NCBI RefSeq assembly: GCF_022846255.1
Contig: NZ_AP025682.1
Length of the DNA stretch: 64,000 nt
Strand: one strand, 5' to 3'
Source: Escherichia coli
GTDB lineage: Bacteria > Pseudomonadota > Gammaproteobacteria > Enterobacterales > Enterobacteriaceae
Made by a program: the position numbers and the translations under genes. A model generated the notes under the pieces. It worked only from the letters and a program-made list of their open reading frames with translations. It did not search any database and was not told the origin of the DNA. This document shows, in pieces, positions 26,785 to 60,860 of this stretch; within the stretch, counting starts at the first letter, position 1; each line of letters begins with the position of its first letter.

Positions 26785-27432
26785 CTATGAAGCTAATTTG
26801 TTTAATTTCATTTGTAGTGACTTTACTTCTTGGTCGATAATGTCGAATCCCTTATTGACAGCATCTCTTAGCTCTGCATCAATATTTTTTATCCCTTGAG
26901 CATAATCTACCATTACATTTATTTTTGCATCATGTAATCTCTTATACATGGTTTTATCTTTGTTATTGTCTGCCATGCCAATAAGGATTTTTTCATAATC
27001 CTCAATGAGTTTGTTGTTTCCTTTAAATGATTGTATTAATGAGCGTGAATATGTGTATATGTTAATTATTGAGTCTCTAGCAGAATCATTTAGTTTTGCA
27101 ATGACATTCGCATTTTGCTCATAGAATGTGAAATTATCATCCCCTACAGGGAATGTGAGAATCAACATTTGTCCCGGTTTTATATTATCAATGTGTGTTT
27201 TCATCCTTTTATTATATAAATTGATTAGGGTGAAAACTTCTCCCTTAACTCCTTTTAATACTGAAAGTTGTAATTCAAGGGATTCTCTTTCTGTCTCTAC
27301 TTTAGACAGCTTAGCTTGTTGGGTAACTCCTTTTAGGGTAAACCATCCGCCAATAAGAGTACCAACTAGAGCTGTGAGGGAGGAGGATAACCATCCAGGT
27401 ATGCTATTTAAAAGATTACTAAATTCACTCAT
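26785..27432 (-). CDS. Hypothetical membrane-anchored protein (N-terminal TM helix plus charged helical region); cargo gene
   Basis: 215 aa; hydrophobic segment WLSSSLTALVGTLIGGWFTL then K/E-rich region; AT-rich composition unlike flanking DNA. Confidence 0.5.
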   Translation of the reverse strand: MSEFSNLLNSIPGWLSSSLTALVGTLIGGWFTLKGVTQQAKLSKVETERESLELQLSVLKGVKGEVFTLINLYNKRMKTHIDNIKPGQMLILTFPVGDDNFTFYEQNANVIAKLNDSARDSIINIYTYSRSLIQSFKGNNKLIEDYEKILIGMADNNKDKTMYKRLHDAKINVMVDYAQGIKNIDAELRDAVNKGFDIIDQEVKSLQMKLNKLAS

Positions 27433-28073: not shown

Positions 28074-28922
28074 TCAGACCAGTTTTTTCACCAGCGCTTC
28101 GCTATGACGAATACGTTCTGGTGCCAGTTCCAGATCCTGCTGAATCAGCGCAATGAACAGCAAATCCGTTAACATTCCCTGCGCGTGACAAGCAGAGATT
28201 GAAGCACTGTTTGTCGCTTGTTCTTCGGCAATGGTATACAGGCAATGAGAAGCACGCTGTTGCAGGGCATTGGGAGTAAAGCCGGTAATAGCCAGCACTT
28301 TTCCGCCCACTCGCAGCATCTCATCTGCCGCCAGGTTTAACTCGCGTCGTACACCGGTGTAGGAAATGGCTAATAACAGATCGTCAGGGGACGACGCCTG
28401 TACTGTAGCGAGTAGCGCATGCATATCGCGCACTGCGGCAGCATTGAAGCCAATCTTCATCAGCTTCCAGGCAAAGTTTTGCGCCACCAGACCCGAAGCG
28501 CCAATACCGGTCAGAATTATCCGCCGCGCAGAGCGCAACATTGCCACGCATTCATGCAGTTTCTCTTCACTATTAACGTTTAACGTTGCGTACATAGCGG
28601 CAGTATTTTCTTTAATCAGTTTTTCGCCGACCAGCCGTAACGGATCATCACCGCGGATTTGGTTATGAATGGGCACGGAGGGAGATTCCGGCTGGCTTGC
28701 CAGCGCTTCACTCAACGCCAACTTTAGTGCCGGAAAACCTTTATAGCCGAGTTTTTGCGCGAACTTCACGACGCTGGATTGACTGACTCCGGCTTCGTTG
28801 GCCAGTTGCTGAGAGCTTAAATGGCGCGCCGTATCAGGTTGTAGCAGCAGATAATCCGCCAGTTTTTTATCACTCTGGGCAAGCCCCTGGTAACGCTGAC
28901 GGATACGAAGTAAGCCGTTCAT
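28074..28922 (-). CDS. yfhH: RpiR/SIS-family transcriptional regulator YfhH
   Basis: 282 aa from MNGLLRIRQRY; N-terminal HTH, SIS domain (ILTGIGASGLVAQ); conserved context next to pgpC-tadA-mltF-purL. Confidence 0.8.
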   Translation of the reverse strand: MNGLLRIRQRYQGLAQSDKKLADYLLLQPDTARHLSSQQLANEAGVSQSSVVKFAQKLGYKGFPALKLALSEALASQPESPSVPIHNQIRGDDPLRLVGEKLIKENTAAMYATLNVNSEEKLHECVAMLRSARRIILTGIGASGLVAQNFAWKLMKIGFNAAAVRDMHALLATVQASSPDDLLLAISYTGVRRELNLAADEMLRVGGKVLAITGFTPNALQQRASHCLYTIAEEQATNSASISACHAQGMLTDLLFIALIQQDLELAPERIRHSEALVKKLV

Positions 28923-29130
28923 ATCTTTCCTCGCGATGAAATAATGGCGACAACAGGCAATATGAGACAAACGCGAGTGAATTTTATATTCCATTGCCGC
29001 TAATTGCCATGAATTAAAAATTCCAGTTAGCCATGATGCGGTCGATTGTTGCCGGAAAAGTGATGATCTATCTGTTAGGCTATGTAGTAGCGAAAATTAA
29101 TCAGGATGTTTCAGTCCAGAGGAGTATGGT

Positions 29131-29766
29131 TTGGCAACTCACGAGCGTCGTGTGGTGTTTTTTGACTTAGATGGAACATTGCATCAGCAGGATATGTTCG
29201 GCAGTTTTTTGCGTTATTTACTGCGTCGCCAACCGCTGAATGCGTTACTTGTTCTGCCGTTGTTGCCGATCATAGCCATTGCGTTATTGATAAAAGGTCG
29301 TGCGGCACGCTGGCCGATGAGTCTGCTTCTGTGGGGATGCACTTTTGGTCACAATGAAGCGCGTTTGCAGGCGTTGCAGGCCGATTTCGTACGCTGGTTT
29401 CGTGACAATGTTACCGCCTTTCCGCTGGTTCAGGAGCGATTAACCACCTACCTGTTAAGTTCCGATGCTGATATCTGGTTGATTACCGGCTCTCCGCAGC
29501 CGCTGGTTGAAGCGGTTTATTTCGATACGCCCTGGCTGCCGCGGGTTAATCTTATCGCCAGTCAGATTCAGCGTGGCTATGGTGGTTGGGTATTGACGAT
29601 GCGTTGTCTGGGACATGAAAAGGTCGCGCAACTGGAGCGCAAAATCGGCACGCCGCTGCGGCTGTACAGTGGCTATAGCGACAGTAATCAGGACAACCCG
29701 CTGCTTTATTTCTGTCAGCATCGTTGGCGAGTAACTCCGCGCGGTGAACTCCAGCAACTGGAATAG
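29131..29766 (+). CDS. pgpC: Phosphatidylglycerophosphatase C (HAD family)
   Basis: 211 aa; HAD motif FFDLDGTL; synteny with tadA. Confidence 0.8.
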   Translation: MATHERRVVFFDLDGTLHQQDMFGSFLRYLLRRQPLNALLVLPLLPIIAIALLIKGRAARWPMSLLLWGCTFGHNEARLQALQADFVRWFRDNVTAFPLVQERLTTYLLSSDADIWLITGSPQPLVEAVYFDTPWLPRVNLIASQIQRGYGGWVLTMRCLGHEKVAQLERKIGTPLRLYSGYSDSNQDNPLLYFCQHRWRVTPRGELQQLE

Positions 29767-40673: not shown

Positions 40674-41864
40674 TCACAGCACCTTATGCGGGCCAAAGCA
40701 TTCGTAATGAATGTTTTCCTGTTTCACGCCCAGATCCACTAACTGTTTCGCGGCAAACTGCATGAAGCCAACCGGGCCGCAGAGATAGAACTGCATTGTC
40801 GGATCGCTGAACGCACCTTCCAGTTTGCTCAAATCCATCAGACCTTCGCTATCAAACTGACCTTTAGCGCGATCGGCTTCGCTCGGCTGACGATACCAGG
40901 TGTGTGCGGTAAAGCGTGGCAGTGATTGACCCAGTTCCTTAACTTCATCGGCAAAGGCGTGAACATTGCCATTTTCTGCCGCATGGAACCAGTTCACTTG
41001 TGCTGTGTGGCCTGCTTTTGCCAGCGTGTCGAGCATTGCCAGCATTGGCGTTTGACCGACACCGGCAGAGATTAACGTCACTGGTGTGTCATCTGCGACA
41101 GCCATAAAGAAATCACCTGCCGGAGCGACCAGTTTCACGACATCGCCAACATTGGCGTGATTGTGCAGCCAGTTGGATACCTGCCCGCCATCTTCGCGTT
41201 TCACCGCAATACGATAGCCTTTGCCATCCGGTTTGCGAGTCAAAGAGTACTGACGAATTTCCTGATGCGGGAAACCTTCCGGCTTCAGCCAGACGCCGAG
41301 ATATTGCCCCGGACGGTATTCTGCCACTGCGCCACCGTCGACCGGCTCCAGTTCGAAGCTGGTGATAAGCGCGCTGCGCGGTGTTTTAGCCACAATGCGG
41401 AAATCGCGAGTACCTTCCCAACCACCGGCTTTGCTGGCGTTTTCGTTATAGATTTCCGCCTCGCGATTGATAAATACATTAGCCAGGACGCCATAGGCTT
41501 TACCCCACGCGTCCAGCACTTCCTGCCCCGGGCTGAACATTTCGTCCAGCGTTGCCAACAGGTGTTCACCGACGATGTTGTACTGTTCCGGTTTGATCTG
41601 GAAACTGGTGTGCTTCTGCGCGATTTTTTCTACCGCTGGCAGCAGCGCAGGCAGGTTTTCAATATTGCTGGCGTAGGCGGCAATAGCGTTAAACAGGGCT
41701 TCACGTTGATCGCCATTACGCTGGTTACTCATGTTAAAAATTTCTTTGAGTTCTGGGTTATGAGTAAACATACGGTCGTAGAAATGGGCGGTTAACTTTG
41801 GTCCCGTTTCCACCAGTAAAGGGATGGTGGCTTTTACTGTAGCGATGGTTTGAGCGTCAAGCAT
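40674..41864 (-). CDS. hmp: Flavohaemoglobin (nitric oxide dioxygenase)
   Basis: 396 aa; N-terminal globin domain plus FAD/NAD-binding reductase domain. Confidence 0.95.
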
Positions 41865-41892
41865 ATGGTCTTCCTTTTTTTTTGCATCTTAA

Positions 41893-41915
41893 TTGATGTA
41901 TCTCAAATGCATCTT
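41893..41915. promoter_or_regulatory. NsrR-type operator in the hmp promoter
   Basis: Inverted repeat AAGATGCATTTGAGATACATCAA (reverse strand) about 30-50 bp upstream of the hmp start, in the hmp-glyA divergent region. Confidence 0.55.
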
Positions 41916-42193
41916 ATAAAAAATAGCCCTGCAATGTAAATGGTTCTTTGGTGTTTTTCAGAAAGAATGTGATGAAGTGAAAAATTTGCATCACAAACCT
42001 GAAAAGAAATCCGTTTCCGGTTGCAAGCTCTTTATTCTCCAAAGCCTTGCGCAGCCTGAAGGTAATCGTTTGCGTAAATTCCTTTGTCAAGACCTGTTAT
42101 CGCACAATGATTCGGTTATACTGTTCGCCGTTGTCCAACAGGACCGCCTATAAAGGCCAAAAATTTTATTGTTAGCTGAGTCAGGAGATGCGG

Positions 42194-43447
42194 ATGTTAA
42201 AGCGTGAAATGAACATTGCCGATTATGATGCCGAACTGTGGCAGGCTATGGAGCAGGAAAAAGTACGTCAGGAAGAGCACATCGAACTGATCGCCTCCGA
42301 AAACTACACCAGCCCGCGCGTAATGCAGGCGCAGGGTTCTCAGCTGACCAACAAATATGCTGAAGGTTATCCGGGCAAACGCTACTACGGCGGTTGCGAG
42401 TATGTTGATATCGTTGAACAACTGGCGATCGATCGTGCGAAAGAACTGTTCGGCGCTGACTACGCTAACGTCCAGCCGCACTCCGGCTCCCAGGCTAACT
42501 TTGCGGTGTACACCGCGCTGCTGGAACCAGGCGATACCGTTCTGGGTATGAACCTGGCGCATGGCGGTCACCTGACTCACGGTTCTCCGGTTAACTTCTC
42601 CGGTAAACTGTATAACATCGTTCCTTACGGTATCGATGCTACCGGGCATATCGACTACGCCGATCTGGAAAAACAAGCCAAAGAACACAAACCGAAAATG
42701 ATTATCGGTGGCTTCTCTGCATATTCCGGCGTGGTGGACTGGGCGAAAATGCGTGAAATCGCTGACAGCATCGGTGCTTACCTGTTCGTTGATATGGCGC
42801 ACGTTGCGGGCCTGGTTGCAGCTGGCGTCTACCCGAACCCGGTTCCTCATGCTCACGTTGTTACTACCACCACTCACAAAACCCTGGCGGGTCCGCGCGG
42901 CGGCCTGATCCTGGCGAAAGGTGGTAGCGAAGAGCTGTACAAAAAACTGAACTCTGCCGTTTTCCCTGGTGGTCAGGGTGGTCCGTTGATGCACGTAATC
43001 GCCGGTAAAGCGGTTGCTCTGAAAGAAGCAATGGAACCTGAGTTCAAAACTTACCAGCAGCAGGTCGCGAAAAACGCCAAAGCGATGGTAGAAGTGTTCC
43101 TCGAACGTGGCTACAAAGTGGTTTCTGGTGGTACTGATAACCACCTGTTCCTGGTTGATCTGGTTGATAAAAACCTGACCGGTAAAGAAGCAGACGCCGC
43201 TCTGGGCCGTGCTAACATCACCGTGAACAAAAACAGCGTACCGAACGATCCGAAGAGCCCGTTTGTGACTTCCGGTATTCGTGTAGGTACTCCGGCGATT
43301 ACCCGTCGTGGCTTTAAAGAAGCCGAAGCGAAAGAACTGGCTGGCTGGATGTGTGACGTGCTGGACAGCATCAATGATGAAGCCGTTATCGAGCGCATCA
43401 AAGGTAAAGTTCTCGACATCTGCGCACGTTACCCGGTTTACGCATAA
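42194..43447 (+). CDS. glyA: Serine hydroxymethyltransferase
   Basis: 417 aa from [12 protein letters not shown]; PLP-lysine region [14 protein letters not shown]. Confidence 0.95.
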
Positions 43448-59720: not shown

Positions 59721-60860
59721 ATGGTTTTGCAATCCACGCGCTGGTTGGCGCTCGGCTATTTCACATACTTTTTTAGTTACGGCATTTTTCTACCTTTCTG
59801 GAGCGTCTGGCTTAAAGGGATTGGTTTAACGCCAGAAACCATCGGCCTGTTATTGGGGGCGGGTCTGGTTGCCCGTTTCCTCGGGAGTTTGCTCATCGCG
59901 CCCCGCGTCAGCGATCCTTCCCGCCTGATTTCCGCCTTGCGCGTGCTGGCACTGCTGACACTTCTCTTTGCTGTCGCCTTCTGGGCGGGGGCGCACGTAG
60001 CGTGGCTGATGCTGGTGATGATTGGCTTTAACCTCTTTTTCTCACCGCTGGTACCGTTGACCGATGCACTGGCGAATACGTGGCAAAAGCAGTTCCCGCT
60101 TGATTACGGCAAAGTGAGACTGTGGGGCTCGGTGGCGTTTGTCATTGGCTCGGCGCTGACGGGCAAACTGGTCAGTATGTTTGATTATCGGGTGATCCTC
60201 GCGCTGTTGACGTTGGGCGTGGCATCCATGCTGCTCGGCTTTCTCATCCGTCCGACGATTCAGCCACAAGGGGCAAGCCGCCAGCAGGAGAGCACCGGCT
60301 GGTCTGCGTGGTTGGCGTTGGTTCGCCAGAACTGGCGCTTTCTGGCCTGCGTTTGTTTATTGCAGGGGGCACATGCGGCCTATTACGGTTTTAGCGCCAT
60401 TTACTGGCAGGCAGCTGGCTACTCGGCCTCGGCGGTGGGGTATTTGTGGTCGCTGGGCGTGGTGGCGGAAGTCATTATCTTTGCGCTGAGTAATAAACTT
60501 TTCCGCCGTTGTAGTGCACGCGATATGCTGTTGATCTCGGCGATTTGCGGCGTAGTGCGCTGGGGCATTATGGGAGCAACGACGGCGTTGCCGTGGTTGA
60601 TAGTGGTGCAAATTCTGCATTGCGGTACCTTCACGGTCTGCCACCTGGCTGCCATGCGCTATATTGCTGCTCGCCAGGGTAGCGAAGTCATCCGTTTACA
60701 GGCGGTTTACTCTGCCGTCGCGATGGGCGGCAGTATCGCCATCATGACCGTTTTCGCCGGTTTCCTGTATCAATATCTCGGCCACGGCGTGTTCTGGGTG
60801 ATGGCGCTGGTGGCGCTTCCGGCAATGTTTTTGCGCCCGAAAGTTGTTACCTCATGCTGA
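59721..60860 (+). CDS. hcaT: MFS transporter (putative 3-phenylpropionate permease)
   Basis: 379 aa; 12 predicted TM helices. Confidence 0.8.
   Translation: MVLQSTRWLALGYFTYFFSYGIFLPFWSVWLKGIGLTPETIGLLLGAGLVARFLGSLLIAPRVSDPSRLISALRVLALLTLLFAVAFWAGAHVAWLMLVMIGFNLFFSPLVPLTDALANTWQKQFPLDYGKVRLWGSVAFVIGSALTGKLVSMFDYRVILALLTLGVASMLLGFLIRPTIQPQGASRQQESTGWSAWLALVRQNWRFLACVCLLQGAHAAYYGFSAIYWQAAGYSASAVGYLWSLGVVAEVIIFALSNKLFRRCSARDMLLISAICGVVRWGIMGATTALPWLIVVQILHCGTFTVCHLAAMRYIAARQGSEVIRLQAVYSAVAMGGSIAIMTVFAGFLYQYLGHGVFWVMALVALPAMFLRPKVVTSC

Follow-up and report, generated by a model that had tools for sequence, protein, structure and literature searches.

The 23-bp segment at positions 41893-41915 (minus strand) of the window, that is, of the whole 64,000-nt (64-kb) stretch of Escherichia coli DNA analyzed here, is very probably the NsrR operator of the hmp promoter, at which NsrR would occlude the core promoter and be released by NO, with part of the same DNA overlapping an FNR site. 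This operator is a published site, already known, fully characterized and by now textbook material. What our analysis adds is mildly new and quantitative only: among the enteric operators that of Escherichia is the most degenerate, it shows an apparent trade of NsrR for FNR recognition, and it is accompanied by a lineage-specific duplicate of TAAGATGCA. The product of hmp is the main aerobic NO-detoxifying enzyme in enteric bacteria. The in vivo occupancy of the site, the de-repression of hmp in an nsrR mutant and the NO sensitivity of the Fe-S cluster rest on the literature. The segment and the two genes that enclose it are the following.

41893-41915, minus strand: 23-mer assigned as the NsrR operator, 11-1-11 layout AAGATGCATTT-G-AGATACATCAA (sequence, matrix rank 1 and published 23-mer)
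40674-41864, minus strand: hmp (hmpA) coding sequence, NO-inducible flavohaemoprotein, the regulated gene (open reading frame list and RefSeq annotation of matching E. coli genomes)
42194-43447, plus strand: glyA, the divergent neighbor and other border of the common intergenic region (open reading frame list and RefSeq annotation)

An earlier note, made from the letters alone, had described an NsrR-type inverted repeat between hmp and glyA. The sequence it gave agrees letter for letter with the minus strand, which reads AAGATGCATTTGAGATACATCAA in the direction of hmp (plus strand, TTGATGTATCTCAAATGCATCTT), and its location was right, as the segment falls within the 329-bp divergent interval (41865-42193) between hmp (minus strand) and glyA (plus strand). 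Of 5426 complete E. coli genomes, 5425 contain a match (identity of at least 95%) to a 1-kb query around the operator, and the genes annotated beneath the matches are hmpA and glyA. Compared with K-12 MG1655, the intergenic region differs by one single-nucleotide polymorphism, placed approximately 160 bp upstream in the interval, and by a run of nine instead of seven A residues; promoter and operator are the same as in K-12, and the 57 bp of promoter and operator show no change in 5179 of 5418 E. coli genomes. The A-run (41871-41879) lies between the hmp operator and the ribosome-binding site, and its polymorphism (A9 here, A7 in K-12 MG1655 and E. albertii) shifts the length of the hmp 5' UTR by 2 nt. 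The gene for the regulator, nsrR (yjeB), is present in E. coli and is located outside the 64-kb window.

The strongest evidence drawn from the window itself is the match to the NsrR motif. We used a symmetrized weight matrix built from 25 published 11-1-11 sites (PMC5320621, Table 4), from which hmp was excluded, and a second matrix restricted to the published sites beneath ChIP peaks. The sites in these matrices had themselves been picked with a matrix that hmp may have fed, a circularity that the exclusion of hmp lessens but does not remove entirely. With the leave-hmp-out matrix, the hmp operator ranked first among the 63,978 window positions, at 16.9 bits versus 13.9 bits for the runner-up; the ChIP-peak-restricted matrix gave 17.8 versus 12.1 bits. 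Matches this good are expected by chance 0.04 to 0.085 times per 64 kb under a first-order Markov null. The motif scan that the earlier note had suggested as a check therefore returned the hmp operator as the top match of the window, and the outcome named there as refuting, no match to the matrix, did not occur. The runner-up of the leave-hmp-out scan (26803-26825, TAATTTCATTTGTAGTGACTTTA, 13.9 bits) lies within the acpS coding sequence, as judged from colinearity with strain YP3, and its score is at chance level, the mean best score of shuffled windows being 13.1 bits.

The score is distributed very unequally between the two halves of the 23-mer.

41905-41915, minus strand: upstream half-site AAGATGCATTT, the same as the published 11-bp consensus half (11/11; 15.7 bits with the half-site matrix)
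41893-41903, minus strand: downstream half-site AGATACATCAA, a degenerate NsrR half with 7/11 identity to AAATGCATCTT (1.0 bit with the half-site matrix)

With 15.7 bits in one half and 1.0 bit in the other, the operator is strongly lopsided. The upstream half AAGATGCATTT is the sole half-site match of at least 14 bits on either strand of the 64-kb window and is near-invariant across the 32 Enterobacteriaceae of our alignment, while the downstream position is occupied mostly by AAATACAACTT or AAATGCATCAT in orthologues. In E. coli, the upstream half is probably the main source of NsrR binding energy. The description of the segment as a dyad stands only in part: the published 11-1-11 layout is present, but the symmetry is poor, with 7 of the 11 position pairs complementary. 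Dyads as good or better occur at 567 positions in the window and at 6 of 307 in the hmp-glyA intergenic region, and an inverted-repeat search with 6- and 7-nt seeds reported no dyad at 41893-41915. Because the longest exactly complementary run within the 23-mer is only 4 nt, dyad symmetry was not used as evidence, and the poor dyad together with the 1.0-bit downstream half means that full-dimer contact on both halves is not assured. These two facts, the commonness of 7/11 dyads and the failure of the repeat search to report this one, are what would speak for a chance AT-rich imperfect palindrome devoid of function. We give that reading almost no credence. An independent matrix ranks the segment first among 63,978 positions; the segment keeps its position in 57 other Enterobacterales-type loci and its sequence in 5179 E. 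coli genomes, and lies where ChIP data have been published at hmp; matrix rank and cross-species conservation contradict a chance palindrome, which is effectively refuted. The 23-mer is above chance as an NsrR matrix match, not as an inverted repeat.

The position of the NsrR operator relative to the promoter is also informative. A consensus-based scan found exactly one minus-strand promoter in the hmp-glyA interval, with the elements listed below.

41940-41935, minus strand: hmp -35 hexamer TTTACA (promoter scan; every alignment column at least 90% conserved)
41916-41911, minus strand: hmp -10 hexamer TAAGAT (promoter scan; 18-nt spacer from the -35 hexamer)
41903, minus strand: hmp transcription start, the A at base 13 of the 23-mer (mapped experimentally, Figure S3 of PMC1274295)

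The operator starts one base inside TAAGAT and covers five of the six hexamer bases as well as the start site, so that the overlap with the -10 region proposed previously holds; it is equally true for the alternative -10 reading TATAAG (41918-41913, minus strand). With the mapped start at base 13, the operator spans -12 to +11. The sequence TATAAGAT at the hmp -10 element is conserved in the 32 aligned Enterobacteriaceae. This placement, over the core promoter and start site of a NO-stress gene, fits repression. A holo-NsrR dimer on -12 to +11 would occlude the -10 element and the start site, and RNA polymerase would thus be unable to form an open complex. Upon exposure to NO, nitrosylation of the Fe-S cluster would release NsrR, hmp would be transcribed, and NO would be detoxified.

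Other conserved elements of the intergenic region were also cataloged. The element AAGAACCATTT (41948-41938), conserved in Enterobacteriaceae, was considered as an upstream NsrR half-site and rejected: it lacks T5 and G6, scores 7.3 bits and overlaps the -35 hexamer, and its conservation is treated as that of the promoter. Enterobacteriaceae keep a GGG(N)TA within the promoter spacer (41922-41931). On the other strand it reads TAGCCCT in E. coli and TACCCCT in relatives, which is similar to the NarL/NarP heptamer TACYYMT, and the block is possibly the one marked as a candidate NarP site in Figure S3 of Rodionov et al. 2005. Approximately 70 to 90 bp upstream of the hmp start lies a further block, GTGAAAAATTTGCATCAC (41977-41994, plus strand), several columns of which are at least 90% conserved across the 32 Enterobacteriaceae, and in E. 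coli it is inside a perfect 7-nt inverted repeat (TGTGATG at 41968-41974 and CATCACA at 41989-41995). Assuming TGAA-N5-TTCA as the MetR consensus, TGAAAAATTTGCA matches it at 7 of 8 positions, and the GTGAAAAATTTGCATCAC/TGAAAAATTTGCA block is probably the known MetR site common to glyA and hmp.

To follow the operator across species, hmp loci were gathered by the coding pattern HNPELKxIFNM, located 102 nt into hmp, which yielded 120 loci; as this anchor is within the coding sequence, the sampling is independent of the operator. The 200 nt upstream of each hmp, with the start set 102 nt before the anchor, were scanned with the leave-hmp-out matrix, and loci with an N-terminus of MLD or MID were classed as Enterobacterales-type. 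All 57 other Enterobacterales-type loci carry an NsrR-type site, at 16.3 to 31.7 bits, whereas the 95th and 99th percentiles of 1857 length-matched control windows drawn from these loci were 7.9 and 11.7 bits, and the best of them reached 16.7 bits. The score of the E. coli operator (16.3 to 16.9 bits) is about that of this single top control window, and at 16.3 bits the operator of E. coli and E. albertii is the lowest scoring of the 58 enteric hmp orthologues. In 31 other aligned Enterobacteriaceae the operator comes directly after TTTACA-N(16-18)-TAT, and the columns conserved at 90% or above in the 32-genus Enterobacteriaceae alignment are those of the -35 hexamer, the -10 hexamer plus operator (TATAA.ATGCAT.T.A.AT.CA), the ribosome-binding site and one further upstream block. 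Among the other 59 loci, 38 scored below 12 bits, mostly from Vibrio, Pseudoalteromonas, Shewanella and Sphingobacterium. The first three of these genera served as a negative control, the NsrR motif being mostly absent upstream of their hmp genes. Several Vibrio loci have NorR-type GTCA-N-TGAC sites in place of the NsrR motif, and hmp was predicted to belong to the NorR regulon in Vibrio (PMC1274295).

Since the conserved block begins at the -10 hexamer and includes the start site, its conservation might be explained by the constraint on the core promoter alone (-10 hexamer, discriminator and start site), no repressor being bound. We consider this very improbable. Conservation reaches approximately +8 to +11, where it mirrors the upstream half (AAAT[AG]CA), the 23-bp motif is also found before the unrelated genes ytfE, hcp and ygbA, and the hmp loci of NorR-using taxa lack the motif although promoters are needed there too.

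The same survey produced two observations outside the enterics, in which the site is single. The hmp promoters of Photobacterium, Aliivibrio, Salinivibrio and some Vibrio carry a tandem pair of NsrR-type 23-mers (loci L049, L052, L053, L076, L085, L087, L091, L092, L095 and L113), as in AAGATACAGATCAGATACAACTT-AT-AACATATATTATAAATACAACTT. Furthermore, near-perfect NsrR-type palindromes precede the hmp homologues of two Bacteroidota genomes, a Bacteroidetes MAG (L048, AAGTTGTATTTTAAATACAACTT, 29.8 bits) and Chryseobacterium lathyri (L100, TTGTTGTATTTAAAATGCAACAA, 19.6 bits); the Sphingobacterium and Flavobacterium loci of the same hmp sample are without NsrR-type palindromes.

The low score of the E. 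coli operator has to be considered together with a second regulator, whose putative site shares the downstream part of the 23-mer.

41893-41906, minus strand: FNR-like site TTGAGATACATCAA, 9/10 to TTGAT-N4-ATCAA (1 mismatch), nested in the downstream part of the operator (bases 10-23)

With three FNR-like matches of at least 9/10 in the 64-kb window, approximately the number expected by chance, the match of TTGAGATACATCAA alone is not significant. The center of the FNR site at hmp, which we take to be +5.5, computes to +4.5 here. The latter figure uses the start as marked in PMC1274295, and TTGAGATACATCAA corresponds to the FNR site of that 2005 alignment, in which the region upstream of hmp has a candidate FNR site conserved only in E. 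coli and Salmonella. The fnr-dependent repression of hmp is credited to Poole 1996 and Cruz-Ramos 2002 in the papers that cite them. In our sample, an FNR match of at least 8/10 was present in 9 of the 58 enteric loci (Escherichia, Salmonella, Citrobacter and K. oxytoca) and was 4-7/10 elsewhere, in keeping with the narrow distribution given for the candidate FNR site in PMC1274295. The FNR-matching loci scored lower for NsrR, with a median of 23.5 versus 27.9 bits (one-sided Mann-Whitney p = 0.0004; Spearman -0.56), although these loci are phylogenetically related and the p-values therefore overstate their independence. In the E. coli operator, the loss of NsrR score appears to track the gain of the overlapping FNR site, and the weak symmetry of the operator would be due to the divergence of its downstream half toward that site. 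FNR is another NO-sensitive Fe-S protein. We propose that, with the downstream half having drifted into an FNR site, the same DNA also permits anaerobic repression by FNR.

Taken to its extreme, this overlap would make the segment an FNR operator only, with FNR at TTGAGATACATCAA, just past the start, repressing anaerobically and the NsrR likeness being incidental. The 9/10 match at 41893-41906, the published role of Fnr as an hmp repressor and the fact that E. coli has the poorest NsrR match among enteric orthologues are consistent with it. It is nevertheless very improbable, because matches of that quality occur about as often as chance predicts, the FNR match falls to 4-7/10 in most Enterobacterales while the NsrR match holds at 19 to 32 bits, the perfectly conserved upstream half AAGATGCATTT is mostly outside the FNR site, and published ChIP data have an NsrR peak at the hmp promoter. 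Thus, the use of the site by FNR is best seen as an addition to its use by NsrR, not as a replacement.

Downstream of the NsrR operator, the E. coli promoter has one more element that resembles a half-site.

41880-41890, minus strand: extra half-site-like AAGATGCAAAA, 2 bp downstream of the operator (7.4 bits)

This element is made up of the second copy of TAAGATGCA, which forms a perfect 9-nt direct repeat on the hmp strand with a spacing of 25 nt (41908-41916 and 41880-41891). In the 32-genus alignment, E. coli and E. albertii alone have AAGATGCAAAA, which was listed as a possible motif by Mehta et al. 2015 (PMC5320621). It is conceivable, although rather unlikely, that the Escherichia hmp operator was remodeled into a composite, in which the downstream NsrR half was lost to the FNR site and the duplication of TAAGATGCA then added a third half-site at +14 to +24. 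Such a half-site could partly make up for the loss if it brought in a second NsrR molecule or lengthened the footprint into the 5' UTR. The hmp switch of E. coli would then be of lower affinity, more readily released and dually sensed compared with that of its relatives.

RefSeq annotation of MG1655 and of other E. coli genomes has no regulatory feature at the operator, and the comparison with the known hmp regulatory region was therefore made against papers. Mehta et al. 2015 (PMC5320621, Table 4) report the same 23-mer as the hmp NsrR 11-1-11 site of E. coli CFT073, beneath a ChIP-seq peak; its PatSer ln P there is -18.22, the cut-off being -14.28, and it ranks 6th of the 27 genome-wide 11-1-11 sites of that strain. 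Its 19-base core, GATGCATTTgAgATaCATC, had already been tabulated for E. coli hmp (Rodionov et al. 2005, PMC1274295, supplement). The hmp promoter is one of 19 bound in both CFT073 ChIP-seq and K-12 ChIP-chip, and the NsrR proteins of the two strains are identical (PMC5320621). Its ChIP-seq enrichment is modest, 3.8-fold versus 9.7 to 16 for ytfE, hcp and grxD (PMC5320621), which fits a weaker site, though enrichment depends on many other things. E. coli NsrR has also been reported to be able to use single 11-bp motifs, or half-sites, which is consistent with binding mainly through the upstream half at hmp. The identity of the site as NsrR's, as the earlier note had it, is thus borne out by the matrix rank, the published peak and ln P, and the conservation across Enterobacterales hmp promoters, and its suggestion of nitrosative-stress control of hmp is supported by the matrix match and that same peak.

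The published physiology describes NsrR as a NO-sensitive Fe-S repressor whose DNA binding is lost upon reaction with NO, and hmp is de-repressed in the nsrR mutant. The gene is strongly repressed by NsrR, also by Fnr and weakly by Fur, and it is activated by MetR. Salmonella NsrR gel-shifts the orthologous hmp probe, and a NO donor lowers this binding. Since excess Hmp generates superoxide, tight NsrR repression matters for survival in macrophages (PMC2884951).

The window also contains the divergent interval between yfhH and pgpC/yfhB (approximately 28900-29150), the latter reported as a ChIP target of NsrR in CFT073 as well as in K-12. A clear NsrR motif was sought there; the best full-site match, 29006-29028 (GCCATGAATTAAAAATTCCAGTT), scored 8.8 to 10.9 bits and the best half-site match, 29018-29028, approximately 9 bits. 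This is therefore a second reported NsrR-bound region in the window without a convincing motif.

Compared with the published hmp NsrR site of K-12 and CFT073 (PMC1274295, PMC5320621), the 23-mer, the -35 and -10 hexamers, the spacer and the position relative to the start are all the same here. The CFT073 ytfE (dnrN) operator, AAGATGCATTTAAAATGCATCTT, shares with hmp the upstream half AAGATGCATTT and the 11-1-11 layout, but it is a perfect palindrome with the top published score (ln P -25.1), while the downstream half of hmp has 4 mismatches (ln P -18.2); the K-12 ytfE core is listed with ATaCATC (PMC1274295). Among close relatives, the Salmonella and Citrobacter hmp operators (AAGATGCATTTGATATACATCAT and variants) have the same position and upstream half, all with G at position 12, and their downstream half is likewise FNR-like (8-9/10). 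They differ from E. coli at two bases, G14 to T and A23 to T, and consequently have higher NsrR scores (22.6 to 26.5 bits versus 16.3 in E. coli). The operators of Klebsiella, Enterobacter, Serratia, Yersinia and Photorhabdus likewise follow TTTACA-N-TAT at this position and share the 11-1-11 motif, but they are nearer the palindromic consensus (mostly 24 to 32 bits) and match FNR poorly (mostly 4-7/10).

Comparison can also be extended to other regulators of the family. IscR is a Rrf2 paralogue of NsrR that senses an Fe-S cluster and represents a sister regulator family, and its operators are of similar length. An IscR site was considered at hmp and rejected by inspection, the segment having neither the type 1 GACT/AGTC core nor the type 2 CC/GG signature, which we take to be the IscR consensus features. 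The iscR gene itself lies in the window at approximately 60100-60600, followed by iscSUA, according to the annotation of a near-identical genome, and is unrelated to the hmp operator. A more distant parallel is NsrR at hmpA1 of Streptomyces coelicolor (PDB 7B0C, PMC4432287), where a Rrf2-family [4Fe-4S] repressor likewise binds an 11-bp inverted repeat at a flavohaemoglobin promoter and NO abolishes binding. The consensus, however, is another one, and half-sites, reportedly used by E. coli NsrR, are not bound by ScNsrR, for which both halves are required.
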